The notes under the pieces: model-generated
Databases searched by the model: none
What the model was told of the DNA's origin: nothing
What the model saw: the letters and a program-made list of their open reading frames with translations, nothing else
Shown: piece by piece, positions 3,016-25,863 of the stretch
Layout of the letters: each line of letters opens with the position of its first letter
Position numbering within the stretch: position 1 is the first letter of the stretch
NCBI GenBank assembly: GCA_023150835.1
Contig: JAKLKB010000076.1
Location: 1 to 39,932, forward strand
Direction of reading: 5' to 3'
Source: Myxococcota bacterium
GTDB taxonomy: Bacteria > Myxococcota_C > UBA6777
Length of the DNA stretch: 39,932 bases
Translations under genes and position numbers: made by a program

Positions 3016-3135
3016 TGGGGCGCTGCCCCATGCCCCGCAAGGGACTGTCGCCCCTTGACCCCGTGTTGGCGAAGAGATCACAGGTTTTTCAAACAAACGA
3101 CGCTCTCGCTTGAGGTGCCGCGAACACGGCTTTTT
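3016..3135 (+). repeat. Repeat family B (double-hairpin REP-like element), long copy
   Basis: TGGGG..CCCCA / CAAGGG..CCCTTGACCCCGTG..GGCG core plus tail ending CGAACACGGCTTTTT, closely matching 22993-23118. Confidence 0.85.
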
Positions 3136-6993: not shown

Positions 6994-7524
6994 GTGGCAT
7001 GGAAAACCAAGCGGCGGGTTCGTGCTTGGGATGAGACGCATGGGTTGGTGTTTTGTGAACACTTGAACTTGTACTTGTTTGAATTGCCGAAGTTTTCGCT
7101 GGATGGTTTGCCGCAGACTCCGAACAAGCGGGAACAATGGCTGCATTTCTTAAAGGAGGGTCATGTTATGCGACCAGAGATCGCTGAAGCATGGAAGACA
7201 CCAGAGATCGAAGAAGCGATCAAGGAGCTTCAAAAGCTGTCGAAAGATCGGTCTTGGCGTGAAGCCTATAACGATCGAGAAAAAGCCTTGCGCGATTATA
7301 TCTCGATCATGCACGAGCGTTTCGAGGAAGGTCTTGAAAAAGGTATCGAGAAAGGTATCGAGAAAGGTATCGAGAAAGGGTTGAGATTGTCTGCACAGCG
7401 TTTGTTGGAGAGCGGGATGGAAGCGGAGCGCGTGGTATTGGGGATGTCGCTGGACGTGGTGGCGGAGATCGAGGCCCACCGAATGCCTCTTCATACGGAT
7501 GTTGCAGAGAAATCGAAGACGTAA
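6994..7524 (+). pseudogene. C-terminal part of an Rpn/PD-(D/E)XK_2 family nuclease; N-terminal catalytic region absent
   Basis: LYLFELPKF, EQWLHFLK, AYNDREKALRD, EEGLEKGIEKGIEKGIEKG (12-bp repeats), terminal HTH-like segment; no D...(D/E)xK region upstream. Confidence 0.75.
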
Positions 7525-7636
7525 TACGAGATCCGCCCGTTGCGTGCGTAAAGATGTAGGGGCAGCCCCCCGTGGCTGCCCTATTACAGGGCGTCTACGC
7601 ACGACCCTTCGTGTACACTTCACTCGGATATCGTAC
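7524..7636. mobile_element. Repeat family A full copy: ~112-bp MITE-like element with 12-bp terminal inverted repeats
   Basis: ATACGAGATCCG ... CGGATATCGTAC; internal GTAGGGGCAGCCCCCCGTGGCTGCCC hairpin. Confidence 0.75.
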
Positions 7637-7686
7637 AAGCGGCCTTTTGGGAGGCGATTGGGAGCGCGAAGGGAAGGGGCATTCAC

Positions 7687-7810
7687 AAAAAAGCCCGTGT
7701 TCGCACCCCTTCAAGCGGTGCAGTCGTTGATTTGAAAAGCGTCTGTGTACCCCGCCAACACGGGGTCAAGGGGCGACAGTCTATGGCGGGGTGTGGTACC
7801 TCGCCCCACA
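7687..7810 (-). repeat. Repeat family B long copy (inverted)
   Basis: AAAAAAGCCCGTGTTCGC...CGCCAACACGGGGTCAAGGGGC...GCCCCACA. Confidence 0.8.
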
Positions 7811-7858
7811 AAAGCAAAGGAACAGACAACACCCCACAAAAGAAAGACTGAAAACGAA

Positions 7859-8713: not shown

Positions 8714-8772
8714 GGGGCCTTTCTGAGGCTACACGAGCGTCTTGGGTGGATGGTTGAATAGCTGTGCTTGTT

Positions 8773-8832
8773 CCGCCGATACGGGGTCAAGGGGACGAAG
8801 TTCCCTTGCGGGGTGTGGGGTAGAACCCCATA
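8773..8832 (-). repeat. Repeat family B core copy
   Basis: CCGCCGATACGGGGTCAAGGGGACGAAGTTCCCTTGCGGGGTGTGGGGTAGAACCCCA. Confidence 0.8.
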
Positions 8833-8888
8833 CGCGCCTTGTTAAGGTGGAAACCTCGTAGAGTTGGTCTTGATCGCCTTTTTTTTTT

Positions 8889-9032
8889 CTCCCCCCCCCT
8901 CAATCCCCCCGTGAACGGGGGGAAGTTGGAACGGGCAGCGTCTGCATTTCGTGCATACAGCGTGCGTCATGAAAAAACAAAATCCCCGATGCTTCCGACT
9001 TTCGCTCCCTCCCCTGTTCACGGGGGAGGGCG
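8889..9032. repeat. Repeat family C (REPIN-like; two inverted CCCCC-GTGAAC-GGGGG hairpins flanking a core)
   Basis: 8926-9032 is the reverse complement of 39826-39932 with one mismatch seen. Confidence 0.9.
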
Positions 9033-10325: not shown

Positions 10326-11975
10326 TCAAGAGCCGCTGACCAAGGCAGCGATGAGTTGTGTGCGCGATGCAGCGATGCTTTCCATGCTGCTGCCTTCGAT
10401 CGGCAAGTAAAAAGAAAAGCTGTGTAGGTCTTGTTCTCGGGCGTAGGAAGTGGGTGGACGTTGGGCGTCAAGGATGTCCTCTGAAGAGTCGATACCTGCT
10501 CGTGATTTTTGTTTTTTGGCGCGTCTTTTTTCGAGAGAGGGTTTTCGTTTTGGGGGCGGTGTGGTGGAGGGGATTTCTTGTGGGGCGAACGGGGCGGTGT
10601 TTGGGGAGGTGGGTTGGAGGATGGGAAAAAGGATACCGTGGATCGCGGGGAGATGATCGTTGTATTGCGTAAAGATATCTTGCCAGTGGCGGATATTTTG
10701 GTAACACAGGGCGATGGCGTAGACCTTGCGTTGTGGGTCAAGGCAGTCGCGGGGATCGAGGGTGCGGGAGAGATGGAGATGGACGCTGCCGTGTTGGATC
10801 TCGTCGTAGAGTCGGAGCTTGAGCAGATCGAGGTCTTGTTGAAAGGCGGCGGGATCGAGGCGACCATGTAAGCAATGGATGTGAAATTGAAGCGCGTCAT
10901 GCTCGAAGTATCGGGTGAGATCGCGGATCAAGCGTAGGCAGAGTCCGAGCAAGAGGATGGAGAACTGATAATCGTAGCCGCTGGATTTGAGGGAGAAGAT
11001 CTCGCCGAGATCGAGGATCAGGTGGACGGTTCGGCGTTTTCGGCGAAGTTGCCCAGCATCGCGGGTGTAGAACAACAACTCACCTTCGACAAAGCGCAGA
11101 TCGAAGAGATCGATCTCTTCTTTGGATTCCATGTAGATAAGCTCGGAGAGAACGAGGTTTTCGAAGGCTCCGCGTGTGGTGATCTCGGAGATCCCGCCTG
11201 TCGGGTAGTAGGTTTCGTCGACAAAAGCGGTGTCGCTGTCGGCGGATTCGTCTTGGATCGGGAGTTCGCGTAAGTCGATCTCGCCCAAGCGTCGCTCGAT
11301 CTCGATCAGTTGGCGACAGCCGATGCGTAAGGCTTCGGTCTTGAGCTTTTCAAAATGGGTCAGTTCAAAGAGATCTTCTTCGTGCAAGAGGTCGGACCAT
11401 CGGACTTTTTGCGATGTATTTTGAAGGAATCGCAAAAGCTGTTGTGCAAACGAAGGGAGCTTTGGCAGGGCTTCGGTGATGCGTTGGTGGGCTGCATCGA
11501 TCTGGTCGTAGGAAGTCGCAGAAAGCATGCTCCCGCGCAACTGGGAGGGATGCAACAAGATATCTCGTGGCGCATTCGCCGCAAGAGGACGCCACAGCAG
11601 TTCAAGTAAGCGAAGATGAAGCTGTTTTTTGTCTGGGGCGGTTTGCAGCATCTCGAAGGCTGTTTGGAGATGGAAGTTTTGAAGAAAGCGAGACAGCCAC
11701 TCATTTTCGTAGCGCAAGCGCAAGGTGCGTTCTTCTTCGGGCCAATCTTGGAAGCCTTTGAGCGAAGCAAAGCGGGTGTTGTGGCCTTCGTAAAGCAGCG
11801 CACCAAGGTCCACGATCAAGAAAAACGGGAGATGGTAATGCCCCAGCCCAGCAAGGTGGCGATACCAGACGAAGGCGGGCGAAAGGTAAGCGCGCAAGAG
11901 ATCTTCGGAGAGCGCGCTGTAGCGCAGGCTTGCGAGCAGATAAGAAGTGGTTTGGGCTTCGGGGATGGTGTGCAT
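10326..11975 (-). CDS. ViaA-like / degenerate vWA partner of MoxR (FtsH ternary system)
   Basis: YPTGGISEITTRGAFENLVLSEL...LFDLRFVEGELLFYTR motif of MoxR-associated vWA proteins, followed by strand VHLILD without DxSxS; directly downstream of MoxR; start moved to ATG 11975 to avoid overlap. Confidence 0.7.
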   Translation of the reverse strand: MHTIPEAQTTSYLLASLRYSALSEDLLRAYLSPAFVWYRHLAGLGHYHLPFFLIVDLGALLYEGHNTRFASLKGFQDWPEEERTLRLRYENEWLSRFLQNFHLQTAFEMLQTAPDKKQLHLRLLELLWRPLAANAPRDILLHPSQLRGSMLSATSYDQIDAAHQRITEALPKLPSFAQQLLRFLQNTSQKVRWSDLLHEEDLFELTHFEKLKTEALRIGCRQLIEIERRLGEIDLRELPIQDESADSDTAFVDETYYPTGGISEITTRGAFENLVLSELIYMESKEEIDLFDLRFVEGELLFYTRDAGQLRRKRRTVHLILDLGEIFSLKSSGYDYQFSILLLGLCLRLIRDLTRYFEHDALQFHIHCLHGRLDPAAFQQDLDLLKLRLYDEIQHGSVHLHLSRTLDPRDCLDPQRKVYAIALCYQNIRHWQDIFTQYNDHLPAIHGILFPILQPTSPNTAPFAPQEIPSTTPPPKRKPSLEKRRAKKQKSRAGIDSSEDILDAQRPPTSYAREQDLHSFSFYLPIEGSSMESIAASRTQLIAALVSGS

Positions 11976-12003
11976 GGCGCTCTCGTTTTGGAGATCTGTT
12001 GCG

Positions 12004-12999
12004 TTAATGAAGACGGAGAAGCGTATCGACTTTTTCTCGAACGGGAGCAAAGTCTTGGATGCGATCGGCGACATAGCGCAACAAAACGAGGTCTTCTTTG
12101 GTGACGACGCCTCCGTGAATTAAGAAGGCGCGTGTACGGATCAGTTTATAGAGTTTGATCACTTTGCGGTCGCTGATCTCGATGCGGTCTTCTTTTTCGA
12201 GTGTTTTGAGGATGCGTTTGAACAGAGCGTAGACATCGCTTGGGAAAAAGCGGTCGCGATCTGTTCTGCCTTCTTTGTCTTCGGTGCGAGACATCGTGTG
12301 ATCGAGATAGGCTTTGAGTTTGAGAAAGTCTTCAAGGCGGCAAAGGTCGGCCCAAGGGCGCTGTTGGAAGGCTTTGTACGTCTCGTTGCGCAAGCCTTTT
12401 TCGAGAAGTTCATCGAAGTGTGTTTCGCGCACACTTTCGCTTTCGACTTTGAGTGTGAAGCGGTCGCGCAAGGCTCCAAGCTCAGAGAACTCAGGGATCT
12501 CATTCGTTGCTCCAAAAAGCATGACCAGATCGATCGAGATCGGCTTACCATCTTGGTAATATTTTCGCTCATTGATGATCGTAAGAAGCGTATTTAAGAT
12601 CGCGGAGTTTGATTTAAAGATCTCATCCAAGAAGGCGACGCGAGATTGAGGAAGTTTACCTTCGGCGCGTCGGAGGTAGCGACCTTCTTTTAATTGGTTG
12701 ATATCGATGGGGCCGATGATCTCGCTTGGTTCGGTGAATTTGGTGAGCATATACTCAAAGTATTCTTCACCTTCAAGGCCGATGGCTTGGGCGAATTTGA
12801 CGATCAGATCGGACTTGGCGGTACCGGGTTTTCCGACGAGCAAGAGGGGTTCTTGGGCGAGGGTGCAGAGGACCATCAAGTCGACGATATCTTCTTTGTT
12901 GACGAAGTACTGCGCGAGGTGTTTTCGGACTTGGTTGACGCGCTTGCGGAGGTTTTCGACTTGGGGTTTGAGATCTTCGAAGGCGTATGTAGGAAGCAA
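12004..12999 (-). CDS. MoxR/RavA-family AAA+ ATPase
   Basis: GKPGTAKS Walker A, YFEYMLTKFTEPSEIIGP, FLDEIFKSNSAILNTLLTIINER, ALRDRF; TTG start with GGAGA RBS next to the upstream stop. Confidence 0.92.
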   Translation of the reverse strand: MLPTYAFEDLKPQVENLRKRVNQVRKHLAQYFVNKEDIVDLMVLCTLAQEPLLLVGKPGTAKSDLIVKFAQAIGLEGEEYFEYMLTKFTEPSEIIGPIDINQLKEGRYLRRAEGKLPQSRVAFLDEIFKSNSAILNTLLTIINERKYYQDGKPISIDLVMLFGATNEIPEFSELGALRDRFTLKVESESVRETHFDELLEKGLRNETYKAFQQRPWADLCRLEDFLKLKAYLDHTMSRTEDKEGRTDRDRFFPSDVYALFKRILKTLEKEDRIEISDRKVIKLYKLIRTRAFLIHGGVVTKEDLVLLRYVADRIQDFAPVREKVDTLLRLH

Positions 13000-13001
13000 G
13001 G

Positions 13002-16000
13002 TTATTCTCCCATCGGTTGAGTGAGGTCTTCGTGAAGGATACGTTCGCGCAGAGCCATCTCATCGCGATCCATGTATTGTTTCATTTGTCCGAGAGCGAG
13101 TTGTTCTTTGCTCGCAGCGATGCGTACGAGTTGCAGTTGAAGAAGATAACCGAGGCGCTGTAGGGCGCTTCCCTCATAGTACACGCGCATCGTGCTATCC
13201 GGGGCGTTGATCTGTTGAACGAATTGATCGGTGATGCTTTGAAGAAGTTGATTTCGTTCTTGGAGTGGTAGCTCTTCGATGGCTTGGAGAGCGACACCGC
13301 AAAAGTCGAGGAAGTCGATGGGGTTGTCGATCCAGCGGTAAAGCCACATCAGACATTGTTGGATGATCTCGATGGCTTGGGGCAAACGCTCAAGAGAAAC
13401 CAGACCTTGGGCGATGTGCAGGCGCATCAACATAAAGAACAGCCCACGCACGGAGTCCGATTCATCAGGAGGGCGGGAGGGGGCTACGCGAACAAAGTCC
13501 AAGAAATGCGCGAGCAAGACGTGGCCGGAGCCGCCCCATCGGAGCTTTCCAAGCAGATCGACAAAGCGCGAGATGGCTTTGGCGACTTCGTTGTAATCGA
13601 CGGGCGCACGGGAAAAATCGCCTTCACCCCGTATCGCATCGCGTAGTACCGACAGAAAGGTTTGGGTGAGGTGTTCGATGTGATCGGCTTTTCCCTGTTT
13701 GTGGGCTTCTTGGAGTGCTGCAAAGGCTTCTTGGAGGCGGGGCGCATGGATCGGAGCGTCCGTGTAGAGACGGCGGACATTGGAGGCGGCGAAGGCGGAT
13801 TGTAGCTCTTTTTCTTTGGCAGGTTGTAAAAGGCGAGAGCATTCTTCTATTTTTTCTTTAAGAAAAGGCTGCTTTTCAAGAAGGGAGGTGTGGTGTTGAA
13901 GCCGAGAGGCTGTGCGGATCTCGAAGGCTTCGTCTGCGTAAGAGGCTACGCTGTGGCTGATCGCAGCGACCCACAGATCCAATTCTTGATCGTCTTTGGC
14001 GTATTGTTGGGCTTCTTGGAGCAGATCGACGCCTGTTGGAAGGACTCCGACTTGGAGATGTCCTGCACCGACAAGGGCTTGCCCGACGATGCGAAAAGGA
14101 GGCAATTGCAGTTGAGCGAATTGGTTGCGCAGGTAATGGAGATGGTGAAGAGCGAGATGCTGATCGTTTTGTTCTGCTTGGGTTTCGGCGAAGAGTTGGC
14201 GGTTGTTTGCGAAGGCGCGTTGGAGAAATGTGGGGATATCGGTGATCGAAAGGCCATATTCATTGAGTTCGCGCAGCATGGATTCGCGCACACGGGCTGC
14301 TTCGCGCTGGTCGCGGTTGCATCGAAGGACTTCACGCCATGCAAGCCAACGTAGCTTTTTGCGTAAGAGAGCTTCGCTCTGATGTAGCCACTGGATATGT
14401 GTCTGCAACCACCCAGTACGGACACCCGTCGGTGCTGTAAAGAGGCTGGACAAAAACGCATCGCGTCTTGTATAGATCTGTGCGTTTTCGGTGGGTACGT
14501 TTGTGTGCTTTGTATGGGCTGTTTTAAAGAATATTTCTTGAAGCTGTTTTTTTAGCAGAGCTTCGTTTGGAGGGGAGGCGAGCCAAAGGGCCTCGATCAG
14601 GCATTCTTGGGCTTCGTCGAGTTTTTGCATCTCTTGTTTGAGTTGAGCGAGCATAAAAAAATCGTCGCTTTGTGGGTCTTGAAGGAGCTGAGCTTCAAGG
14701 GTGCGTTCTTCTTCTTCGAGCGCGCTGCGGCGGTGCTCGGAGGTGGCGGTGGGGTTGGTTTTGGAGCGTGGTGTGGGAGGGCGTTGCGTGGGCGATGTCT
14801 GCGGCTCATTCGTTTCTTTGGGAGAAGTTTCTTGTGCGGATTTTTCTCGATCTTTGGGTGTGTGGGTGTCTCGCGATGAAGTGGACTGGCGTGTGTTGAG
14901 GAGTTCAGGACGGTAAGGAGCGCGGGTGTAGCGGCCTAGGTCAAAAACACTTTGTTGCTGGATGGATTGGAGATGTTCGATGTTTTGGGTGATCAAATAG
15001 TCGATGTATTGGCGCAGCGGAGCGAAAGCGTCTTCGCGGATGCGTGTCAGGGTGGCTTCTTCCATGCGGTGAGTGGACGCGGAAGGGAGGGTGACGAAAG
15101 TCAAGATGCCAGCGCGCAGATCAAAGAGGGGAGTGTATTGGTCGCGGCGGAGTTGGGGCTGAAGCTCGATATCCACAGGAAGCAGCAGTTGATGGATCCC
15201 TTTGTAACAAGCAAAGCGCTGACCGCCAAAGTCCAGCCATGCCCGACCTTTTCCGATCTGTTTTTCACGTAAGAAAAAGCGATGCTTTCCATCTTGATCT
15301 TTCTGGATATTGATCAGCAAAAGAGAAAGATCGTCTTCGTCCATCAAAGACAACTGGCGTTCAAGTTGAGGGCGATGTTGCTCTTCAAGCAGCCAGATCT
15401 CGGGTTCCAACGGGCGATTTCGCGGTTCAAAGCGCAGAGGCAAGGAAAAGCGAGGGGTTTGTTCTTTGCTTTCTTCCCAGTCTTGTTCGGTGTGGAGTTG
15501 GAGGACGAATTGCGCGGCTTTGTAGATATCTTGCCATTGGACGGGGGCGATGGTTTGCGGAGGAGCGCCCTGTGGAACAAAGGTCCATCGGGGTTCACGC
15601 GGCATCTCGGACAAGCGCCACAGATCGATCAAGGGGTGTCGATAGCCCCAAGGCGTAAAAAAATCGGTAGCTTCTTCTGTGTAAAGAGTGATCTGTTTTG
15701 AGTATTGTTCTTTACAGATCTGTAAGAGGTAGAAGGATGGAGCTTCGATCCGCAACAACAAGCCATTGTGGGGTGGATTGTGGAGAGGAGCGTATTGGAT
15801 GCGATCGTTTTGCAGGCGCATACTGATCTCGACGAGGGGACCGAGCTGATCGGGATCATGAAGCCAAAAGATCACATGTTCTTTTGGGGCAGAAAGCGGA
15901 AGAGCGGGGACGAGGTCGACGAGAGAAAGCAAGTCTTGCGCATCGCGGCGCTGGAGGACGAGCAGATCTTGTTGAGATCTATCTGGGAGAAAAAGTCGGA

Positions 16001-16235
16001 GAGAGGACTGGTTTTCTTCGATATGGTAAGTATTTTCAAAAAAATGAGAAAACAGTTTACCGAGCAGGCTTTTTTTACGAACAAAGCCGACGAGCAAAAG
16101 CAAAGGGCGGGTGGGTGGGGTTTGGGGTTGGGCGAGGTAAAGCGAGTAGCCGCGTGCGTTGTGACCTTCCGATCCGTGAAGTCGAATAAAGTCCCAAAAG
16201 GCGTCTATCTCGCGAAAGATCAGGGCGTTGCGCAT
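13002..16235 (-). CDS. Large (1077 aa) uncharacterised protein of the FtsH ternary operon; helical/TPR-like C-terminal half
   Basis: Long ORF coupled to MoxR; FFTPWGYRHP and LLLPVDIELQPQLRRD motifs; low-complexity central linker. Confidence 0.75.
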   Translation of the reverse strand: MRNALIFREIDAFWDFIRLHGSEGHNARGYSLYLAQPQTPPTRPLLLLVGFVRKKSLLGKLFSHFFENTYHIEENQSSLRLFLPDRSQQDLLVLQRRDAQDLLSLVDLVPALPLSAPKEHVIFWLHDPDQLGPLVEISMRLQNDRIQYAPLHNPPHNGLLLRIEAPSFYLLQICKEQYSKQITLYTEEATDFFTPWGYRHPLIDLWRLSEMPREPRWTFVPQGAPPQTIAPVQWQDIYKAAQFVLQLHTEQDWEESKEQTPRFSLPLRFEPRNRPLEPEIWLLEEQHRPQLERQLSLMDEDDLSLLLINIQKDQDGKHRFFLREKQIGKGRAWLDFGGQRFACYKGIHQLLLPVDIELQPQLRRDQYTPLFDLRAGILTFVTLPSASTHRMEEATLTRIREDAFAPLRQYIDYLITQNIEHLQSIQQQSVFDLGRYTRAPYRPELLNTRQSTSSRDTHTPKDREKSAQETSPKETNEPQTSPTQRPPTPRSKTNPTATSEHRRSALEEEERTLEAQLLQDPQSDDFFMLAQLKQEMQKLDEAQECLIEALWLASPPNEALLKKQLQEIFFKTAHTKHTNVPTENAQIYTRRDAFLSSLFTAPTGVRTGWLQTHIQWLHQSEALLRKKLRWLAWREVLRCNRDQREAARVRESMLRELNEYGLSITDIPTFLQRAFANNRQLFAETQAEQNDQHLALHHLHYLRNQFAQLQLPPFRIVGQALVGAGHLQVGVLPTGVDLLQEAQQYAKDDQELDLWVAAISHSVASYADEAFEIRTASRLQHHTSLLEKQPFLKEKIEECSRLLQPAKEKELQSAFAASNVRRLYTDAPIHAPRLQEAFAALQEAHKQGKADHIEHLTQTFLSVLRDAIRGEGDFSRAPVDYNEVAKAISRFVDLLGKLRWGGSGHVLLAHFLDFVRVAPSRPPDESDSVRGLFFMLMRLHIAQGLVSLERLPQAIEIIQQCLMWLYRWIDNPIDFLDFCGVALQAIEELPLQERNQLLQSITDQFVQQINAPDSTMRVYYEGSALQRLGYLLQLQLVRIAASKEQLALGQMKQYMDRDEMALRERILHEDLTQPMGE

Positions 16236-16288
16236 GGGAGAGGAACTCGCTTTCTTGCTGGGTGTTGGGGGACGATGCGCGGCTTGGG

Positions 16289-16555
16289 TTAACTGGATTT
16301 GGCGGCTTGTTGCGCGTCATGGGGTTGCTCGTTTTGTGTGGTCGAAGCGGCTTGTGGTGTGAGGCGTCGAACTTTGAGATCGCCGACTTCATCAGGACGC
16401 AACACACCTTTGCCGAGCAATTGAGCCATGATCTCGCGGTGTTGCTGCTCATGTTCGATGGGTAGCGCATCGTCATCAGAAGTAAAGTCTACATAGATAT
16501 CTTTTTTTCCCGTTTCAAGGTTGTAGCGAAGATGGATCACGATCTCTTCAGACAT
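16289..16555 (-). CDS. Small conserved protein of the FtsH ternary operon
   Basis: MSEEIVIHLRYNLETGKKDIYVDFTSDDDALPIEHEQQHRE; AAAGGTG RBS; position within the operon. Confidence 0.75.
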   Translation of the reverse strand: MSEEIVIHLRYNLETGKKDIYVDFTSDDDALPIEHEQQHREIMAQLLGKGVLRPDEVGDLKVRRLTPQAASTTQNEQPHDAQQAAKSS

Positions 16556-16650
16556 GAATGCACCTTTCTTTCTTTTCTGATAGTGAATCTTCTTTTTTAT
16601 GGCACACGATATCTAGCAGATGCGTGGGCGGAAGATGAAGAGTGATCCGC

Positions 16651-16784
16651 TGTAGCCGCCTAATGGTTGGGCAGCCACAGGGGGCTGCCTCTATATCTTT
16701 CGCTCACACAATGGGCGGATTTTCCGCCGAAATGGGGTCAAGGGGGCAAAGTTCCCTTGTGGGGCGTGGGGCAATGCCCCACAC
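16651..16784. repeat. Composite of family A partial (16651-16722) and family B core (16723-16784) inside the operon
   Basis: GGGCAGCCACAGGGGGCTGCC...GGGCGGATTT abutting CCGCCGAAATGGGGTCAAGGGG...GCCCCACA. Confidence 0.8.
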
Positions 16785-16810
16785 AATTATCCAATCCAAT
16801 CGCATAAGCT

Positions 16811-18982
16811 CTAAGAAGATTTGAAAGTTCGGCCTCCGAAGATATCTTTGAGTTCATGGAGTTGGAGCGTCTTTTTTTCGAGCAGCAGATCCACCAAGGT
16901 TTGAAGCTCGGTGCGGTAGTCAGCGAGAAGCTGTTCGGTGCGTTGGCGCTGCGTTTCGAGTAATTGGGCGATCTCTTGATCGATGCGGGCGGCTGCGTGT
17001 TCAGAGATAGCGCGACGGGGTCCACCTAACTCTGCGGTGTGTTCTGTGTTTGCGGCGACTGTACGCAGGCCGATGGCTTCTCCGCCCATACCCAGTTCTT
17101 CGACCATCATCCGACAAATCTCACTTGCACGCTGGAGATCGTCGTACGAACCGACGGAGATATCTCCAATCAAAAGTTGTTCGGCTAAGCGCCCTGCGAG
17201 CAGGACGCAGATATCGTCCACGAGTTCGGCGCGTGTGATGACATACTTGTTTTCTCGGACGGCTTGCATGACGTACCCGAGGACTTGGTCTTCGCCTGTC
17301 GAGATCGTCACTTTTTCGAGGGTGGGGCATTTGGGTAAAACGTAAGCGCAGAGGGCGTGTCCGGCTTCGTGGACGGCGATGGTACGTTGCTCTTTGGCGG
17401 TTAGTTTTACAGGCTTTTTCTGTTTTTGTTGTAAGATTCGATCGACGTCTTCTTCTGTAATGATATCGCTGGGATTTCCGCGCCGAAGGATCTCGCGTTT
17501 GAGTCCGCGCATGATGGCGTACAAGTGGTCACCGCTGTAGCGGATACCGTATTTTTGATCGACGAATCCGCCTGTTTTTTGTACCATGATCTGCAAGAGT
17601 TCATCGGAGATCTGGAGTGCAAAGTTCTTGCGATAGATATCCAAGATCGCTTTTCGATCATCGTCTTGGGGGTAAGGGATCTCGATTTGAAGCTCAAAAC
17701 GTCCCGGGCGCAACAGCGCGGTGTCAAGGGACTCAAGGAAGTTGGTGGTTCCGACCACAAAGACAAGTTCTTCTTTGCGAAAGCCGTCCATCTCGGTGAG
17801 TAGCTGGTTAACCATGGAGTGTTCAACGCCGCTGCCTGTGTAGGTTCCGCGTGCCGAAGCGAAGGAGTCGAGTTCGTCAAACACGATGATGGAGGGGGCA
17901 GATTTGCGTGCTTGAGAAAAAACACGACGTAGATTTTCTTCGGAATCGCCAACCCACTTGGACTTGAGTTCTGGCCCAGAGACGATAAAGAGAGTGGCAT
18001 CAAGCGCGGTGGCGATGGCTTTGGCGAAGTAGGTTTTGCCCGTTCCGGGGGGTCCGTGAAAGATCATACCTTTAGGGACAAGCTGTTCGATCTGTTTGAT
18101 CTGTTCGGGATTTTGACTGCGATCTTTGAGCAAGAGCAGATCAAGGATCTCGGAGCGGATCTTGTCTTTGACAGCGTTGTATCCGCCGAGATCGCGTTGC
18201 AGATCGACGTTGGGCAGTTCGCAATCGGAGACGAGAGTCATCTGGCGGATCTCGTGATAGATGGCTTTGGTGGCTTCGGGGTGCGCGGGGTCAAAGTCAA
18301 GGCGTTGTGCGAGGTGACCGAGGATCTGGCGACAACGGACAGCATTGACTCCTGAGAGGTATTTGTAAAGTGCAAAGGGGTTAAAGGTTTCCGTCCCGAA
18401 TTTGCGGGCTTCGCGTTGCAGGATGATGGTGGGGAGCTGATCGCGAGGGATGCCGATCAGGGCGTGGCGGACGGCAAAAACATTTTCGATCACCTTGGGG
18501 AGTTCAAAGCTGGGGTCTTTGAAGCCAAGGAAGACGAGATCGGGATTTTCGTAAAAAAGCGTAGCGGCTTCGCGGGTTTCCATATTGAGTCCGCTGCGTG
18601 TGGTGGTGGTCAGGACGTCGAGGTGCGGGAGGACGATGATCTGTTCGTTGTCGCCAGAAAAGACGACCTCTTGGAGTTCGCGCAAGATGCGCTGCATACG
18701 GGTGGTGTTGGCGGTGAGTGCGCTTTCTTCTTCTTCGCCTCCTGCGTGTCCAGAGATCAAGCGACAGCGCAAGCGCGGTTCGGCGTTGCTGCGGCGCAAG
18801 CGTGCGCGTAAAGCTTTGTAAAGGTAAAGCGTCAGTTGTTTATCGCATTCGATTAGAACAGAAAGTCCGAGGCGTAGCTTCTCTTCAATCCAATCCAGTT
18901 CATCGCGGTAGATGGCTTCGGTGGCTTCGTCATAGGTCAGGGCTTGGGGGAGCGAAGAGATGGCGATCTGGTGGTTGGACAT
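16811..18982 (-). CDS. Soluble FtsH-like AAA+ ATPase / M41 zinc metalloprotease
   Basis: GPPGTGKT, IVFDELD, VNQLLTEMDGF, LDTALLRPGRF, HEAGH, LLAGRLAE, SVGSYDDL; no N-terminal TM segments, replaced by a ~250-aa extra domain. Confidence 0.92.
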   Translation of the reverse strand: MSNHQIAISSLPQALTYDEATEAIYRDELDWIEEKLRLGLSVLIECDKQLTLYLYKALRARLRRSNAEPRLRCRLISGHAGGEEEESALTANTTRMQRILRELQEVVFSGDNEQIIVLPHLDVLTTTTRSGLNMETREAATLFYENPDLVFLGFKDPSFELPKVIENVFAVRHALIGIPRDQLPTIILQREARKFGTETFNPFALYKYLSGVNAVRCRQILGHLAQRLDFDPAHPEATKAIYHEIRQMTLVSDCELPNVDLQRDLGGYNAVKDKIRSEILDLLLLKDRSQNPEQIKQIEQLVPKGMIFHGPPGTGKTYFAKAIATALDATLFIVSGPELKSKWVGDSEENLRRVFSQARKSAPSIIVFDELDSFASARGTYTGSGVEHSMVNQLLTEMDGFRKEELVFVVGTTNFLESLDTALLRPGRFELQIEIPYPQDDDRKAILDIYRKNFALQISDELLQIMVQKTGGFVDQKYGIRYSGDHLYAIMRGLKREILRRGNPSDIITEEDVDRILQQKQKKPVKLTAKEQRTIAVHEAGHALCAYVLPKCPTLEKVTISTGEDQVLGYVMQAVRENKYVITRAELVDDICVLLAGRLAEQLLIGDISVGSYDDLQRASEICRMMVEELGMGGEAIGLRTVAANTEHTAELGGPRRAISEHAAARIDQEIAQLLETQRQRTEQLLADYRTELQTLVDLLLEKKTLQLHELKDIFGGRTFKSS

Positions 18983-19029
18983 GTCTCTTCCTTTGCTTTT
19001 GGAGGGGAGTTGGCTTGGGATGAGAATCT

Positions 19030-19608
19030 CTATCGTGCAACGCGGATCACGAGTTCGTACTGGCCTTGCGAAGTAGATTCGCGGATATCCAAGACCTCGC
19101 CGAGTTGTCGGGCTTTGCGTTTCAGACTTTCGGCATAAACTTCTTGGAGAATCTGATGGGCATTTTGTAAGCGTTCTTGTTCTGCATCAAGCAGGCTTTG
19201 CGTGATTTGCCTTTGGATTGTTTCGGCTTCGCGTTTCAGATTATCACGTGCTTTGGCTTCTTCAAGGAGAAGGGCTTGTCGGGCATTTTCTTGGGCATTG
19301 CTTTTTCTGTCATAGGCATAGCCTGTGGCTTGGACATCCGTTTTTAGGATTTTTTCTTGTTCGAGCGAGGCTTGCATCTCCATTTTTTCGAGATCGTAGG
19401 TGATGGTTTCGCCTTGATTTCCTTGGGCGGTCCATTGGTTGGGGGCGGTTTCTTGGAAGCCGCGTTGTTGGAGGACGGTTGCCATGATATCGCGCATCTC
19501 GCTTTCGCTGAGGATGGGAGTAAGAGCGATAGGGCGAACTAACCGATCGGATAGCGAAAAGCGTTCTTTGACGGAGGACTTGACTTCGACGTGGTAGACT
19601 TGGCTCAC
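19030..19608 (-). CDS. Uncharacterised coiled-coil-containing protein of the FtsH ternary operon
   Basis: GTG start after AAGGAG; LTPILSESEM..L..RGF and ESLKRKARQLGEV..I.E motifs. Confidence 0.75.
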   Translation of the reverse strand: MSQVYHVEVKSSVKERFSLSDRLVRPIALTPILSESEMRDIMATVLQQRGFQETAPNQWTAQGNQGETITYDLEKMEMQASLEQEKILKTDVQATGYAYDRKSNAQENARQALLLEEAKARDNLKREAETIQRQITQSLLDAEQERLQNAHQILQEVYAESLKRKARQLGEVLDIRESTSQGQYELVIRVAR

Positions 19609-19670
19609 GGACGGCTCCTTTTGGAGAGGCATGATACGCTTGTTGGCGTGGCCTCTGGTGGTGTGAAGAT

Positions 19671-20966
19671 TCAGCCGAGGGTGGGCTGGAGTGTACGTTT
19701 GAGTTCCTTGTAGGTTTGGAAAACCTCCGCAAAGCGTGTTTCTGCGTAGGTTTGGAGAAAGAGGCGATGTGCAGCGTCGCGCTCTGTCGGGTGTAGCGAG
19801 CGGATATCTTCGGCGATATCTTGGATCTGTGCGATCAATCCGATGGCTTGGAGTAGTTCGTCAGTTAGCGTCTGTCGGTCGTTCATGCGTAGGGAGTGGC
19901 TGGCTTCATGAAGCCAGCGCGGCCAATGGACGGTGAGTTGGTCTTGAGCGAGCCAGAGAGAAAAGATCTCTAACCAAGGGGCGAGCAAGTCGTAGCGCTC
20001 GGCTTGTTGAAAGAGATCGATCGCAGAAGACCAGATGCGGTGCATCTGATCGAAATAGTGCAGAAAGGCTTCGGAAGTTGGGTTGGTTTTGGGTGGGGTG
20101 TGTTTTTGGAGCCATGCGTTGCGCAGAAGGGAACCGATCCAAGGCATGAGCGGGGCGACGGATGGATCGAGAAGAAGACGGAGGGCGTCCAGTCCTTGTT
20201 GTTTGGCGCGTTGGTCTTGATGAAAAGAGACAAGCAGGATCAATGGGTTGTTTCGCCACGCGGGATGGGTTGAGCATTCAGGGGGGAGGTGTTGCTGCAC
20301 AAAAGTATAAAGAAAAAAGTGAAGAAGGAGATCGCCATTTTGTCTTGGGTAGAGTGTTGAAAGATGCCGCCATTGTGCATCGAGTACACGTCGCTTGCGC
20401 TGTTCAGAGAGGATGTCTTTTTGGGGAGAGGCCTGATCTTTTCGGGAAGAAGCCGCAGGCTGGGATATCTTGGGGGCATCGGGTGAAGGGAGTGGCTCGT
20501 GGGGGGTGTGCTTTTTTTGGGGGGGGTAAAGTTGGAAGAGATTGAACAGGATGATCAGGGTATCGATGCTGACGTTGCCAAAATTGAGAGGATGGGTAGG
20601 CCAATGGGGGGCATTCCAGAGGCGCGATGTTTGGGGTTTTTCGTGTCCTTTTTTTGCAAAGGAGCGGAGCTGCCAGCCTGTTTGGTTGCACAGAGTTTTG
20701 AGCGTGCCGCAGACGAAGATATCGTGTAGTGCTTCGAGAGCTTCGCGACTGGCGATGTGTTCGTCTTTGAGCGGGAGGATAGAGGTAAGAAAAGGACGCG
20801 GTGGGCGTTCTGGATCGTCGAAGAGATGGGCAGCGAAGGGGATAAGCGCGTGGAAAAAGGCTTTTTGTTCGGGGGTGGGTTCGTCGTGAGAGATGGGGAT
20901 GCCGTTGTGTTCGTGTTGAGAAGAAGGGAAGACTTGGGGGAGAGAAGGTGTGAGCATGGTGGTCAT
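19671..20966 (-). CDS. Uncharacterised protein (~431 aa) of the FtsH ternary operon
   Basis: ATG 20966 overlaps the radical SAM stop (ATGA); protein-like composition only from this start. Confidence 0.72.
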   Translation of the reverse strand: MTTMLTPSLPQVFPSSQHEHNGIPISHDEPTPEQKAFFHALIPFAAHLFDDPERPPRPFLTSILPLKDEHIASREALEALHDIFVCGTLKTLCNQTGWQLRSFAKKGHEKPQTSRLWNAPHWPTHPLNFGNVSIDTLIILFNLFQLYPPQKKHTPHEPLPSPDAPKISQPAASSRKDQASPQKDILSEQRKRRVLDAQWRHLSTLYPRQNGDLLLHFFLYTFVQQHLPPECSTHPAWRNNPLILLVSFHQDQRAKQQGLDALRLLLDPSVAPLMPWIGSLLRNAWLQKHTPPKTNPTSEAFLHYFDQMHRIWSSAIDLFQQAERYDLLAPWLEIFSLWLAQDQLTVHWPRWLHEASHSLRMNDRQTLTDELLQAIGLIAQIQDIAEDIRSLHPTERDAAHRLFLQTYAETRFAEVFQTYKELKRTLQPTLG

Positions 20967-21634
20967 TTCCCTGTAGGTTGGAGAAGAAGGCGGGTGAGGT
21001 CTTGGTGTGGGAAACCGTTGATGGATATCTGGCCGTTGTGAAGGCGGATCTCGATGGTGTTGTTTGCAGCGGGCCAGCCCGCTTGTTCGTCGCGGAGGTG
21101 GGCGTAATGTGGGGAGAGGAAGTGGATCTGTTGGTTGTCTGAGCCGATCCATCGGCGTTTGTGGCTGTGTTGTGCGGGAAGATAAGGCCCATCGATCAGG
21201 AGATCCGTGTGGGCGAGCAAGGCATCCCACGCGGGGCGTTTGGCTTGTTGGAGAGATCGCAGGGTGTAGCCCGTGAAGACCATGACGGAAAGCCCGTGCT
21301 CTTGGGCGGCTTGGGCAAGGCGAGCCAGACCGACGGCTTGGGCGAAGGGTTCGCCTCCGAGCAGCGTGATCCCTTCGATCCCTTCGGTCGAGAGAGTTTT
21401 TTGGATGACGTCTTGTGTGGTTTGTAGCTGTCGGGGCTGGAAGGCCAGCATGTGAGGATTGCAACATCCGATGCAGCGAAAGGGACATCCTTGTACCCAA
21501 AGAGCCATGCGTTTTCCCGGTCCTTCGGCCTCGGTGCATTGGACAACAGCGGCGACGTTGATCAGGTGGCCTGTGTCGATTTGGGCCTGTAGGTCGGCCT
21601 CTTCGAGGGAGAACTTGGGGTTTGTGGGGATCAT
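20963..21634 (-). CDS. Radical SAM protein, NrdG/organic-radical-activase-like (single 4Fe-4S cluster)
   Basis: TEAEGPGKR, WVQGCPFRCIGCCN (CxxxCxxC), GITLLGGEPF, DLLIDGPY, WIGSDNQ; GGAG RBS before ATG 21634. Confidence 0.9.
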   Translation of the reverse strand: MIPTNPKFSLEEADLQAQIDTGHLINVAAVVQCTEAEGPGKRMALWVQGCPFRCIGCCNPHMLAFQPRQLQTTQDVIQKTLSTEGIEGITLLGGEPFAQAVGLARLAQAAQEHGLSVMVFTGYTLRSLQQAKRPAWDALLAHTDLLIDGPYLPAQHSHKRRWIGSDNQQIHFLSPHYAHLRDEQAGWPAANNTIEIRLHNGQISINGFPHQDLTRLLLQPTGK

Positions 21635-21847
21635 CAAGACTCCGTGTGGTGTTTCCTCTTTCGAGCCGTTGCGACAAAGGCGGAAGGCGTTTTGTCGGGT
21701 CGCTTGTTTGGAGACGTTGTTCAAGGTAGTCGGTCGATAGGGGGCTGACAAGTGCGTACAAGCGCAAAGCATACGCAAAAGCCATAGAGAGGTTCGTTGC
21801 GAAGGAAAGCGCGGGGCGTTGTGAGCGAGAAGGTGGAGTGGCGGGAG

Positions 21848-21940
21848 GTTGAGAAGGCGAAGTCGCGGTAAGCCGAGAAGGCGAAAGTTGAGAAGGCGAA
21901 GTCGCGGTAAGCCGAGAAGGCGAAAGTTGAGAAGGCGAAA
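21848..21940. repeat. 39-bp tandem repeat (2.4 copies) containing five GAGAAGGCGAA sub-units, in the divergent promoter region
   Basis: Units at 21848, 21887, 21926. Confidence 0.92.
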
Positions 21941-22130
21941 GATCGGGAGGATAGGTGAATTAAAAAAAAGATGCAAGGAGGGTGTGACAGGGGGGGAAAT
22001 TGTGTTATGGAGGGGCGGGTCTTGGCGTTGCGGTGGTGGATCATGCCGCTGTATCGGCGAGGATCGCCGTGTCGTTTGCGGGTAGAGGTGGTCTCTATGT
22101 GTGAGCGGCGCATCAGATCGAGGTGAGGAT

Positions 22131-22835
22131 ATGTCTGCTTTGGTGTTGGTCGTTGAGGATGAGCAGGATCTGGTACGCGCACTGGAGTATAACCTCAAAC
22201 GTGAGGGGTATCAGGTGCGTAGCGCGTTGACAGGAGAGGAAGCGTTGGCCCAAGCCGCACGAGAACCTGTGCCGGATCTGGTGTTGTTGGACTTGATGTT
22301 GCCCGATATGTCGGGGGTTGAAGTGTGCCGTCAGTTGCGGCGCAACGAAGCAACGTGCGAAGTTCCGATCGTGATGATCACCGCAAAAGGCGAAGAGATC
22401 GACCGTGTAGTGGGTTTTGAGGTGGGGGCGGATGATTATGTGGTGAAGCCGTTTAGTGTGCGTGAGTTGATGTTGCGGGTGCGTGCGATCTTGCGGCGTG
22501 CGCAACCAGAAACGCCCGAGACACGGGATTTGCGGTTTGGCTGTTTGCGGATCGATACCGAAGCGCATCGGGTGTGGGTGGATGAAGAAGAGCGGCGTTT
22601 GACGGCATTGGAGTTTCGGTTGTTGCACACGTTTTTAACGCGGCGTGGACGGGTGCAGACGCGGGAGATGTTGTTGCAGGATGTTTGGGGGATCGATGCG
22701 GATGTATCGACTCGGACGGTGGATACGCATGTAAAGCGGCTGCGTGAAAAACTCGGTGAAGCGGGCGCGTACGTCAAAACGCTGCGTGGTGTGGGGTATC
22801 GTTTCCGAACCCAACCAGACAGCGACGATCTTTGA
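22131..22835 (+). CDS. phoB: PhoB-like OmpR-family response regulator
   Basis: VEDE, LLDLMLP, ITAKGEEIDRVVGFEVGADDYVVKPFS, TRTVDTHVKRLREKL, TLRGVGY; upstream of a PhoR-like kinase. Confidence 0.8.
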   Translation: MSALVLVVEDEQDLVRALEYNLKREGYQVRSALTGEEALAQAAREPVPDLVLLDLMLPDMSGVEVCRQLRRNEATCEVPIVMITAKGEEIDRVVGFEVGADDYVVKPFSVRELMLRVRAILRRAQPETPETRDLRFGCLRIDTEAHRVWVDEEERRLTALEFRLLHTFLTRRGRVQTREMLLQDVWGIDADVSTRTVDTHVKRLREKLGEAGAYVKTLRGVGYRFRTQPDSDDL

Positions 22836-22865: not shown

Positions 22866-22974
22866 ACGAAATCCGAGTACACAGCAAAGGAGAGTACGTG
22901 GACGCCCGATTATAGGGCAGCCACAGGGGGCTACCCCTACATCTTTACGATCACACAACGGGCGGATTTCGTAT
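22866..22974. mobile_element. Repeat family A full copy between phoB and phoR
   Basis: ACGAAATCCG ... CGGATTTCGTAT ends; internal GGGCAGCCACAGGGGGCTACCCCTAC. Confidence 0.8.
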
Positions 22975-22992
22975 GGCGCATTTGGATGATTT

Positions 22993-23118
22993 TGTGGGGT
23001 GTCACCCCACGCCCCACAAGGGAGCAAAGCTCCCTTGACCCCGTGTTTGGCGAAGAGATCACAGGTTTCAAAACAACAGCTTTGTCGCTTGAAGTGTCGC
23101 GAACACGGCTTTTTTTGG
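22993..23118 (+). repeat. Repeat family B long copy between phoB and phoR
   Basis: Matches 3016-3135 including GGCGAAGAGATCACAGGTTT and CGCGAACACGGCTTTTT. Confidence 0.85.
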
Positions 23119-25616: not shown

Positions 25617-25863
25617 AAAAAAGCCGTGTTCGTGAGCTTTTTTGCGGTAGAGTCGTTTGTTTGAAAAACATCGGATCACCCCGCCAATACGGGGGCAAGG
25701 GGGCCGCGCTAAGGAAGTGGGGCGTGGGGCAAAGCCCCATACGCGCTAGATTAATACGATATCCAAGTGATGTGTTCTCGTAGGATAGTGTGTAGACGCC
25801 CGATTGTTGGGCAGCCACACCTGTCTGCCCCTACGTTTTACGATCACACAATGGGCGGATTTC
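25617..25863. repeat. Composite of family B long copy (25617-25742, inverted) and family A copy (25754-25863)
   Basis: AAAAAAGCCGTGTTCG...GGGGCAAAGCCCCA, then ATACGATATCC...GGGCAGCCACACCTGTCTGCCCCTAC...GGGCGGATTTC. Confidence 0.8.

Follow-up and report, generated by a model that had tools for sequence, protein, structure and literature searches.

Gene content of the operon

The window, a stretch of 39,932 nucleotides from contig JAKLKB010000076.1, carries eight co-oriented genes on the minus strand at positions 10326-21634, all of which were confirmed in the window as an earlier note on this DNA had described them. Six Pfam families of the FtsH-MoxR-vWA system (fvmX5, fvmX3-analog, fvmX7, bpMoxR, ivWA, and ivWA-helical_N) are matched, so that five of the eight proteins are recognized directly by FtsH-ternary-system models and a sixth, fvmX6, only through its relatives, in agreement with the family proposed in that note. 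Of the remaining two genes, one encodes an NrdG-like radical SAM enzyme and the other a soluble FtsH that looks active (AAA and M41 domains, HEAGH). The four components said earlier to have no assignable function remain so in substance, though each now carries a family name (fvmX3-analog, fvmX5, fvmX6, and fvmX7). Transmembrane segments are absent from all eight proteins, and no nuclease, TIR, caspase, or pore-former, the classical effectors, is found among the operon genes. Because the coding strand is C-rich, spurious long frames are abundant; one of these is a 704-aa ORF at 19671-21785 that traverses the radical SAM gene.

The FtsH-MoxR-vWA ternary system was predicted from genome comparisons by Kaur, Burroughs, Iyer, and Aravind (eLife 2020; PMC7159879), whose proposal of a conflict or defence role is likewise a prediction. 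The passages of that paper on the system describe a GxxxTAKS variant of the MoxR P-loop named for these systems, a highly divergent vWA domain that has a large all-alpha fusion partner at its N-terminus and has often lost its metal-binding residues, and an FtsH component in which an active FtsH-type AAA+ domain is joined to a second, N-terminal, inactive one. In the sub-type whose vWA protein has an N-terminal helical domain, a "distinctive radical SAM" serves as effector, and a stand-alone gene, radical SAM or NEFF1, is named in this capacity (PMC7159879). The window operon has the GxxxTAKS MoxR, the divergent helical-N vWA, the FtsH-type AAA+ protein, the helical fvmX proteins, and the stand-alone radical SAM gene; measured against those passages it shows no essential difference and is a member of the system. 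Beyond what they describe, its FtsH has a full M41 protease domain, its fvmX6 has diverged beyond recognition by the Pfam model, and neither NEFF1 nor a separate peptide gene is seen in the operon. As PF20005 (fvmX7) occurs in 0/14 control genomes and several system-specific families adjoin in one cluster, the association exceeds chance, and the genes almost certainly form, as judged from their sequences, a complete "simple-type" ternary system. The simple type, with its helical-N vWA and radical SAM, is therefore of a kind already known, though from computation only; the system and its radical SAM link are published and in Pfam, and the window adds little to the catalogue. A literature search covering titles and abstract openings found no experimental work on the system, as the earlier note had supposed.

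The FtsH-like protein (16811..18982, minus strand) is a soluble AAA+ zinc protease of 723 aa with strong Pfam matches to AAA (8.1e-42) and Peptidase_M41 (1.5e-42) and with intact Walker A (GPPGTGKT), Walker B (IIVFDELD), pore-loop (KWVG), and HEAGH motifs. Its solubility, claimed earlier, is borne out by a maximum 19-residue hydropathy of 1.44, with no transmembrane segment. It shares the AAA and M41 domains and the intact Walker A/B and HExxH motifs with canonical membrane FtsH, whereas the membrane and periplasmic part is replaced by a conserved 270-aa N-terminal domain and the KWVG pore loop is unlike the canonical loop as generally known. Assignment as a canonical FtsH was rejected, given the missing N-terminal membrane anchor and a score against TIGR01241 (FtsH_fam; 3.2e-92) of 310 bits, below the equivalog cut-off of 600. 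Residues 1-270 are conserved among 531 relatives and have no P-loop; they align with the protein's own AAA domain at an hhalign probability of 0.1, and a profile search of PDB sequences returned a best E of 1.2, neither of which identified in them the inactive AAA+ domain described in PMC7159879. The AAA domain also matches the IetA models (5.7e-32 in PADLOC; 8.1e-29 in NCBIfam). Like the window operon, the anti-plasmid and anti-phage system IetAS couples a classical-clade AAA+ ATPase to a protease, although only the AAA domain is common to both. IetAS lacks MoxR, vWA, radical SAM, and fvmX proteins, and its protease, IetS, is of another kind, a subtilase.

The MoxR-type AAA+ ATPase (12004..12999, minus strand; 331 aa) matches bpMoxR (5.6e-61), AAA_5 (1.3e-24), and AAA_lid_8 (1.9e-08), with Walker A and B present and the P-loop GKPGTAKS, of the GxxxTAKS form, at residue 56. 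It begins with a TTG at 12999 that follows the fvmX7 TAA (13004-13002) after two nucleotides (cc), with GGGAGAA just upstream, an arrangement already noticed as a stop and ribosome-binding-site overlap at 12999-13004. Its vWA partner (10326..12074, minus strand; 582 aa) consists of an N-terminal helical region (ivWA-helical_N, 2.7e-11) and a vWA domain (ivWA, 6.9e-25) with a degenerate MIDAS; DxSxS occurs in 0/35 aligned orthologues, and the start is ambiguous between 12074, which overlaps MoxR, and 11975. A MoxR gene adjoining a vWA adaptor gene is also found in RavA-ViaA, CbbQ-CbbO, and NorQ-NorD, and the closest NCBIfam match of the window MoxR is RavA (5e-39). This resemblance favors a housekeeping chaperone-protease for the maturation, cofactor insertion, or quality control of a specific cellular complex, with the radical SAM enzyme as part of the maturation, since the other pairs act in this way, as gathered from the relevant passages of PMC7159879 and from general knowledge. 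According to the same sources, those pairs have a vWA with a metal-binding MIDAS and a known client enzyme; the window vWA, in contrast, has no DxSxS and no known client, and six further proteins are attached to the pair.

The fvmX proteins make up the rest of the operon. fvmX7 (13002..16235, minus strand; 1077 aa) has an N-terminal X7 domain, matched by PF20005 over residues 103-415 (E 2.4e-15), and a long helical, TPR-like C-terminal part with a weak TPR_8 match; TPR-named look-alikes in the ESM Atlas at 0.90 are leads only. fvmX5 (19030..19632, minus strand; PF20003, E 2e-16) is 200 aa long when counted from the first ATG, which corrects an earlier length of 192 aa, and its nearest Atlas clusters are the fvmX5 families of Myxococcota and Planctomycetota (score 0.93). 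The 431-aa frame listed earlier without a family (19671..20966, minus strand) is present and proves to be a divergent, all-alpha fvmX6: its own Pfam search gave no match, while a profile search collected 79 relatives, and 31 of the 50 aligned match PF20004 (fvmX6). Its AF2 model is helical (pLDDT 89.6) and matched no PDB fold. Translation probably begins at the second ATG (20957), because the resulting 428 aa agree with the stored protein and with relatives. The overlap of the radical SAM stop with the first ATG (20966-20963), seen earlier as an ATGA at 20963-20966, was confirmed, and the two genes are still tightly coupled with the start at 20957.

The fvmX3-analog (16289..16555, minus strand; PF20002, E 3e-22) is an 88-aa protein with a small beta-beta-alpha-beta domain and a disordered tail (AF2 pLDDT 63 overall, below 50 for residues 66-88). 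Its site, D..LP.EHExxH[RK], lies in a fold weakly like the metal-binding domains of cation-diffusion transporters. The EHExxH motif is invariant in 27/27 orthologous frames, and the invariant residues are D29, L31, E34, H35, E36, H39, L46, and R64.

The radical SAM enzyme

The first gene of the operon (20963..21634, minus strand) encodes an NrdG-like radical SAM enzyme of 223 aa, matched by Fer4_12 (E 1.8e-32), with CxxxCxxC at residue 50 and GGEP at residue 93. Among NCBIfam models NrdG (TIGR02491; E 4e-26) scores best, at 91.8 bits against a cut-off of 126.1, and it also matches phrog_626 (E 2.5e-28). Its C-terminal extension is conserved and common to a family of at least 7719 proteins. Like the NrdG and PflA activases, it is a small Fer4_12 radical SAM protein with a GC...C..C.N cluster and GGEP; unlike them, it falls below the NrdG cut-off and has no cognate glycyl-radical enzyme, as no NrdD, PF13597, or PF01228 was detected in the 93%-complete genome. 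Assignment as an NrdG/PflA activase is not supported on these two grounds. The missing NrdD and glycyl-radical domain, along with weak matches to QueE models (4.4e-6) and to prokaryotic viperin (1.7e-3 in NCBIfam; 1e-4 in PADLOC), would also suit a viperin- or QueE-like enzyme acting on a small molecule or nucleotide to yield an antiviral or signalling product, the AAA+ machinery serving only to regulate it. This role is very improbable, as the NrdG-type matches are far stronger and the operon contains no nucleotide-handling partner gene.

The passages of PMC7159879 on these enzymes predict that the radical SAM modifies a separately encoded peptide, whose gene is to be expected as an accessory and does not count among the core parts that define the system. 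A related possibility is a RiPP-like module, in which the radical SAM enzyme modifies and the M41 domain of FtsH cuts an operon-encoded precursor, either the fvmX3-analog or the C-terminus of fvmX6, to yield a toxin or signal. In its favor, most fvmX6 relatives end in L-x-P-x-x-[G/S] at the extreme C-terminus. However, Pfam finds only Fer4_12 and Radical_SAM in the enzyme, with no peptide-binding extension of the SPASM or RRE type, the tail of the fvmX3-analog is polar, with no motif conserved among the tails aligned, and both candidate precursors occur at loci with no radical SAM gene. In the 1.2 kb preceding the radical SAM gene, no other small ORF is conserved across lineages, and a separate peptide gene was thus not found there as a conserved ORF. 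A RiPP-like module is accordingly regarded as improbable.

The radical SAM gene is present in 9/80 foreign loci. Across the 45 foreign loci with full flanks, it never occurs apart from fvmX6, fvmX5, FtsH, the fvmX3-analog, and fvmX7, and it is the first gene in eight of them as well as in the genomes G001 and G005. Of the non-self relatives listed for the radical SAM enzyme, 18 out of 119 have a longest contig of exactly the same length as that of a listed relative of the FtsH N-terminal domain, a figure that serves only as a proxy for a shared contig.

Distribution, divergence, and expression

The gene order of the operon recurs in the window's own small phylum, in Myxococcota, and in Planctomycetota, and thus forms a fixed eight-gene unit common to three phyla; cultured bacteria, Nannocystis exedens DSM 71 among them, carry it as well. 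The identical order is found in G001, G005, and 8/45 foreign loci with at least 9 kb upstream of MoxR, and a permuted order at one locus (L020). The earlier note had named as a refuting outcome that homologs fail to co-occur elsewhere; the same order in other phyla speaks otherwise. The system, as marked by fvmX7, is present in 6/6 genomes of the small phylum, a presence that looks vertical rather than patchy and that favors the housekeeping chaperone-protease introduced above. Against the latter stands its patchiness in the large class that holds Nannocystis, where fvmX7 occurs in 59/201 genomes, with a frame of at least 1000 aa in 25 of those.

Identities to G001 and G005, respectively, are 90 and 76% for MoxR, 81 and 68% for FtsH, 54 and 33% for fvmX7, and 49 and 25% for fvmX6. 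fvmX6 and fvmX7 are thus the fastest-evolving proteins of the operon, changing several times faster than the motors; within one genus, fvmX6 retains 49% identity against 90% for MoxR. Such rapid divergence of the scaffolds is consistent with an accessory or conflict role and argues against a housekeeping one. The genes flanking the operon in the window (GST/glutaredoxin, a pseudouridine synthase, and a two-component pair) are not defence genes, which suits a housekeeping role; none of them was found beside the operon in G001 (about 2.6 kb of flank) or G005 (1.4-4 kb), no client gene is conserved next to the operon, and the radical SAM gene is dispensable at many loci, all of which tell against it.

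Metatranscriptome contigs from a sludge RNA library (one sample, one study) bridge 5/7 gene junctions, so that the absence of co-transcription, named earlier as a further refuting outcome, is not what was observed. Presence in an ordinary sludge RNA library suggests expression without obvious attack, and it too is in keeping with a housekeeping role. Weighed as a whole, the housekeeping chaperone-protease is considered unlikely, though less so than the peptide-modifying and small-molecule alternatives.

Proposed mechanism, biological role, and non-coding sequences

The best explanation of the locus as a whole, which is judged likely, is that of an accessory, cytosolic, multi-protein ternary machine. 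The individual steps of the mechanism proposed for it, each of which is tentative, are inferred throughout and agree with the model already in print. As large helical proteins that evolve fastest, fvmX7 (TPR-like) and fvmX6 may act as scaffolds or sensors. Once a trigger is bound, the MoxR hexamer and its MIDAS-less vWA adaptor would remodel the assembly at the expense of ATP, after which the soluble FtsH-like hexamer would thread a client past its pore loop (KWVG) into the zinc-protease chamber (HEAGH). Among the components, the fvmX3-analog, small, probably metal-binding, and with a disordered tail, would most plausibly serve the protease as a labile brake or adaptor. The NrdG-like radical SAM enzyme could be an optional add-on that abstracts hydrogen from a complex-bound protein or peptide.

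NrdG-type activases act on proteins. The lack of a detectable glycyl-radical enzyme and the occurrence of the radical SAM gene only beside the full fvm set lead to the speculation that the enzyme radicalizes or modifies an operon protein and that the fvmX3-analog is a metal-dependent switch of FtsH, the output being gated radical chemistry and proteolysis. Although this is rather a long shot, it would, if true, mean that activase-type radical SAM enzymes have a further, novel class of protein substrates, and we know of no characterized defence system with such a mode of output.

Of the conflict machines predicted in bacteria, FtsH ternary systems are among the largest. A conflict role for the window operon, whether anti-phage, anti-plasmid, or kin-directed, is the leading reading and is held with moderate confidence. 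The likeness of the FtsH AAA domain to IetA, the patchy occurrence of fvmX7 in the large class, and the differing flanks are consistent with it, while its uniform presence in the small phylum, its non-defence neighbors, the lack of PADLOC models for the system-specific proteins, the lack of a classical effector, and its sludge RNA count against it. Confirmation of this role would bring radical chemistry together with AAA+ proteolysis and MoxR-vWA chaperones in immunity, and its refutation would instead reveal a housekeeping protease pathway not previously recognized in Myxococcota and Planctomycetota. The targets are sharpened to a fixed eight-gene unit, a radical SAM enzyme confined to full sets and lacking a classical partner in the genome, an invariant HExxH-type site in a tiny protein, and two fast-evolving scaffolds.

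The intergenic spacer between the FtsH and fvmX3-analog genes (16613..16810, no strand assigned) holds a copy, 198 nt in length, of a repeat that is dispersed between genes (repeat families D1, D4, D7, I4, and I15); in G001 and G005 the open frames of these two genes abut directly. The non-coding region upstream of the operon (21635..22100, no strand assigned) is shared with a divergent response-regulator gene and contains a 39-nt tandem repeat at 21824-21925 (repeat family D6). One RNA-library contig extends into this region, from within the radical SAM gene to 21696.

Gene content and system type

Eight co-oriented genes occupy the minus strand between positions 10326 and 21634, as an earlier note had read from the DNA and as the ORF listing confirmed. 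In operon order they encode a radical SAM enzyme (20963-21634; Pfam Fer4_12, E = 1.8e-32), a 431-aa protein with no Pfam match (19671-20966), fvmX5 (19030-19632; Pfam fvmX5, 2e-16), an FtsH-like protein (16811-18982; Pfam AAA, 8.1e-42, and Peptidase_M41, 1.5e-42), an fvmX3-analog (16289-16555; Pfam fvmX3-analog, 3e-22), fvmX7 (13002-16235; Pfam fvmX7, 2.4e-15), a MoxR ATPase (12004-12999; Pfam bpMoxR, 5.6e-61), and a vWA protein (10326-12074; Pfam ivWA, 6.9e-25, and ivWA-helical_N, 2.7e-11). The tight junctions described in that note are also present: the radical SAM gene and the next gene share an ATGA at 20966-20963, and only two bases (cc) separate the TAA stop of fvmX7 from the TTG with which MoxR begins at 12999, a start preceded by a Shine-Dalgarno-like GGGAGAA. 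The C-rich coding strand gives rise to many spurious long frames, such as one of 704 aa across the radical SAM gene. The reported 192-aa unknown is fvmX5, 200 aa long when counted from its first ATG, while the 431-aa protein more likely starts at its second ATG (20957, 428 aa), in agreement with the stored protein and its relatives. The vWA gene has two possible starts, at 12074 or 11975.

FtsH ternary systems have been described by comparative genomics, with the 'simpler' type making up about 30% of them (Kaur et al., 2020; PMC7159879). The operon is a member of this known, computationally defined kind and, judged by sequence, matches the simpler type: its MoxR P-loop, GKPGTAKS, is the GxxxTAKS variant given for ternary-system MoxR in the accessible text of that paper, and the DxSxS motif of the vWA domain is lost in 35/35 aligned orthologues. 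Together with the matches to the Pfam families of the system, these features bear out the proposal of an FtsH, vWA, and MoxR ternary system. The radical SAM step stressed in the same note has its gene in the operon, but the link is not new, having already appeared in print (PMC7159879). IetA and TRIP13, as modeled in PADLOC, resemble the operon in the AAA domain only, and PADLOC holds no models for the system-specific proteins. A full-text literature search, judged by titles and the starts of abstracts, found no experimental work on the ternary system. The assignment is unsurprising to a specialist, and the operon is of value as a clean and complete example whose cultured counterparts bring the question of function within reach of experiment.

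Components and possible mode of action

The FtsH-like protein retains intact Walker A (GPPGTGKT), Walker B (IIVFDELD), pore loop (KWVG), and HEAGH motifs, and both Walker motifs are intact in MoxR. No membrane-spanning hydrophobic segment was found in the eight proteins (highest 19-residue hydropathy 1.73), all of which are predicted to be soluble. The 270-residue N-terminal domain of the FtsH-like protein is strongly conserved (531 relatives, with 51-92% identity among the matches listed); examined as a candidate dead AAA+ fold, it gave no match to the protein's own AAA domain by hhalign, and its profile gave none against PDB sequences. Intein and homing-endonuclease domains (PF14890, PF14528) occur in 7 of 120 listed FtsH-like relatives, each ∼1180 aa long; in one of these, P0206, an insert of ∼455 aa lies within the pore-loop motif of the active AAA domain, between KWVG and ES.

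The fvmX3-analog carries the motif D-x-L-P-x-E-H-E-x-x-H-[RK] in 27/27 orthologous frames, the window's included, and no mention of this motif was found in the accessible text of PMC7159879, whose source data may hold it. An AF2 model (pLDDT 63) shows a beta-beta-alpha-beta arrangement, in which the helix begins with the motif, and a variable tail of ∼25 residues modeled as disordered. Its best Foldseek matches are the metal-binding C-terminal domains of cation-diffusion-facilitator transporters (E ∼0.03, TM ∼0.45), a likeness that offers a lead only.

The 431-aa protein, which had been listed as an unknown, is assigned here as a divergent fvmX6. A word-based search returned only four relatives, and a profile built from these and run against 1.84 billion representatives recovered 79 at E ≤ 0.001. 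PF20004 (fvmX6) was matched by 31 of 50 aligned sequences, a set that includes the window's own protein, which itself gave no match to PF20004; direct searches of its genome with Pfam fvmX1, fvmX2, and fvmX6 likewise gave nothing significant. It is this combination, in which the relatives match the family and the window protein does not do so directly, that indicates divergence. A further Pfam entry, PF20001, proved to be a DUF with no relation to the system. Most fvmX6 relatives end in L-x-P-x-x-G/S, with a common HP[IV][DE]RE motif ∼35 residues before it. No convincing solved structural relative emerged: the AF2 model (pLDDT 89.6, pTM 0.86) is nearly all helical and has no Foldseek match to solved structures at E ≤ 0.001, the best VIA-align result (Z 9.1) covers a helical segment and falls under the level that counts for helical proteins, and the profile found nothing below E 0.14 among PDB sequences. 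As a separate observation, the listed ESM Atlas look-alikes of fvmX5 include fvmX5 clusters and, at a score of 0.88, fvmX2 clusters from Actinobacteria that carry the automatic name 'DnaJ family', and fvmX2 is also found on 19% of members in one fvmX5 cluster; fvmX5 and fvmX2 may be related.

The radical SAM enzyme contains both CxxxCxxC and GGEP and belongs to a family of at least 7719 proteins (E ≤ 1e-10) with a conserved C-terminal extension. Its best named match, below cut-off, is NrdG, the class III ribonucleotide reductase activase (4e-26), and it also matches phage phrog_626 (2.5e-28). However, its genome has no detected NrdD or glycyl-radical domain, and no glycyl-radical-like R[VIL]xG[YFW] motif was found in the eight operon proteins. 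Small ORFs upstream of the gene have matches within the same genus only and none is kept across lineages, so the peptide gene that has been predicted to stand separately is not apparent at this operon. Complex prediction of the enzyme (with 4Fe-4S and SAM) and fvmX6 scored 0.00, 'no answer', which is uninformative either way. A paralogue, 49% identical, lies outside any ternary system on another contig of the same genome (C216; L106, 9682-10389 and 11403-14303), beside an unrelated membrane protein. SPFH/NfeD genes are also close by, and Major Vault Protein domains (shoulder and repeat) occur in a nearby 966-aa protein; this setting gave no clue to the radical SAM substrate.

The domain identities are clear, the catalytic motifs are intact, and the eight-gene unit is conserved. 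In a possible mode of action, fvmX7 and fvmX6 would form a scaffold or sensor, MoxR with ivWA an ATP-driven switch, and FtsH the proteolytic output; the fvmX3-analog might act as a metal-dependent brake or adaptor, and the radical SAM enzyme as an optional protein-directed modifier.

Distribution, divergence, and expression

The window's genome is 7.56 Mb in size and 93% complete. Its phylum is represented in the collection by no more than six species genomes, all of which have an fvmX7 match. The complete eight-gene order recurs in the relatives G001 and G005, and near-identical G002 has the same order as far as its contig end. With MoxR as anchor, a scan of 185,579 species genomes gave 586 related loci, the best 80 of which were classified with profiles from the window's own proteins, so that the counts are lower bounds. 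Of these 80 loci, 45 extended 9 kb or more beyond MoxR on its upstream side. All six upstream components, ordered as in the window, were found in 8/45, including three Nannocystis genomes (one being N. exedens DSM 71), a Nannocystaceae MAG, Limnoglobus, Rubripirellula, and Pirellulaceae. In three loci the radical SAM gene alone was not found. Elsewhere, fvmX5, FtsH, fvmX3-analog, and fvmX7 were found in three, FtsH, fvmX3-analog, and fvmX7 in three, fvmX3-analog and fvmX7 in two, fvmX6, FtsH, and fvmX7 in one, fvmX7 only in 10, and no upstream component in 15. The homologues therefore co-occur across genomes, the comparison that the earlier note had set as a test. An additional locus (L020) has the order fvmX7, MoxR, ivWA, radical SAM, fvmX6, fvmX5, FtsH. 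In the 45 full-flank loci the radical SAM gene was always accompanied by the full set, and for 18 of 119 listed non-self radical SAM relatives the longest contig equals in size that of a listed relative of the FtsH N-terminal domain, a proxy for a shared contig. Loci without the radical SAM gene showed no alternative effector; the genes upstream of their fvmX6 or fvmX5 are mutually unrelated (isochorismatase, FGE-sulfatase, methyltransferase).

A second, FtsH-less paralogous cluster is present in 5/6 genomes of the phylum (contig C73 of the window's genome, L017 9083-14485; also L013, L014, L015, and L016), ordered as a short fvmX7 (∼690 aa), MoxR (P-loop GPPG[TV][AG]KT), ivWA, and fvmX5. An fvmX6-profile match lies upstream in 3/5 loci and a GT2 glycosyltransferase directly upstream in both loci examined; the fetched flanks revealed neither FtsH nor an fvmX3-analog nor a radical SAM gene.

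The operon proteins evolve at unequal rates. Identity to G001 and G005, respectively, is 90 and 76% for MoxR, 81 and 68% for FtsH, 84 and 59% for the fvmX3-analog, 73 and 46% for fvmX5, 67 and 57% for the radical SAM enzyme, 60 and 52% for ivWA, 54 and 33% for fvmX7, and 49 and 25% for fvmX6. The flanking genes are common to the window and G002, and were not found beside the operon within ∼2.6 kb of flank in G001 or 1.4-4 kb in G005. In the class holding Nannocystis, fvmX7 occurs in 59/201 genomes, and in 25 of the 59 its frame is 1000 aa or longer. This protein divergence, the changing flanks, and the 59/201 distribution fit an accessory, fast-evolving system, whereas occurrence throughout the home phylum (6/6 genomes) and the ordinary character of the neighbouring genes fit a resident function.

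The operon is present in RNA libraries, where DNA carry-over is possible. Of the words sampled from a 6.2-kb stretch, 68-83% occur in four RNA-seq runs made on a single activated-sludge sample (one study), and the contigs of these runs are identical to the operon along segments of 326-1229 nt. Among the contigs listed, five of seven junctions are bridged (radical SAM/fvmX6, fvmX6/fvmX5, fvmX5/FtsH, fvmX7/MoxR, and MoxR/ivWA), which is consistent with the co-transcription raised previously, although such contigs cannot prove a single transcript. Contig cover is absent in bins 22068-22551 and slight in 21584-22067, a gap that can be taken neither as a transcript boundary nor as a DNA-contamination control. 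Promoter and terminator scans did not rise above shuffles (3 vs. 5.0; 21 vs. 15.1).

Repeats and neighbouring genes

HEAT repeats and DUF4132 mark a 1303-aa protein (34861-38772) encoded near DUF2252, lamin-tail-domain, ADP-ribosylglycohydrolase, and MatE genes, and no link between these and the operon was found in relatives. A dispersed, hairpin-rich, REP/MITE-like intergenic repeat family has one copy inside the operon, between FtsH and the fvmX3-analog (16651-16794), where the open frames abut directly in G001 and G005. Other copies lie at about 153-203, 3002-3135, 7516-7813, 8757-8846, 22887-23115, 25617-25863, 32982-33063, and 39773-39805; the copies have very high summed depth in RNA-library contigs, which link them together. 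A 39-nt tandem repeat at 21824-21925 (two perfect copies and one partial) has five copies of TTCGCCTTCTC on the operon strand. It lies in the gap that separates the operon from a divergent response regulator of the OmpR/PhoB type (22101-22835), which is accompanied by its PAS histidine kinase, and may serve as an array of regulator-binding sites; the regulator and kinase pair was not found adjoining the operon in G001 or G005. A 107-nt inverted repeat (8926-9032 and 39826-39932), 99% complementary, has arms 30.8 kb apart, one at the window's extreme end. A Peptidase_M90 gene has a tandem array of four 22-nt units upstream of it (211-320), and another array, at 3411-3581 (two perfect 57-nt copies and one diverged), lies in the 5' part of an ORF encoding a Ser/Thr kinase-FGE-sulfatase fusion.
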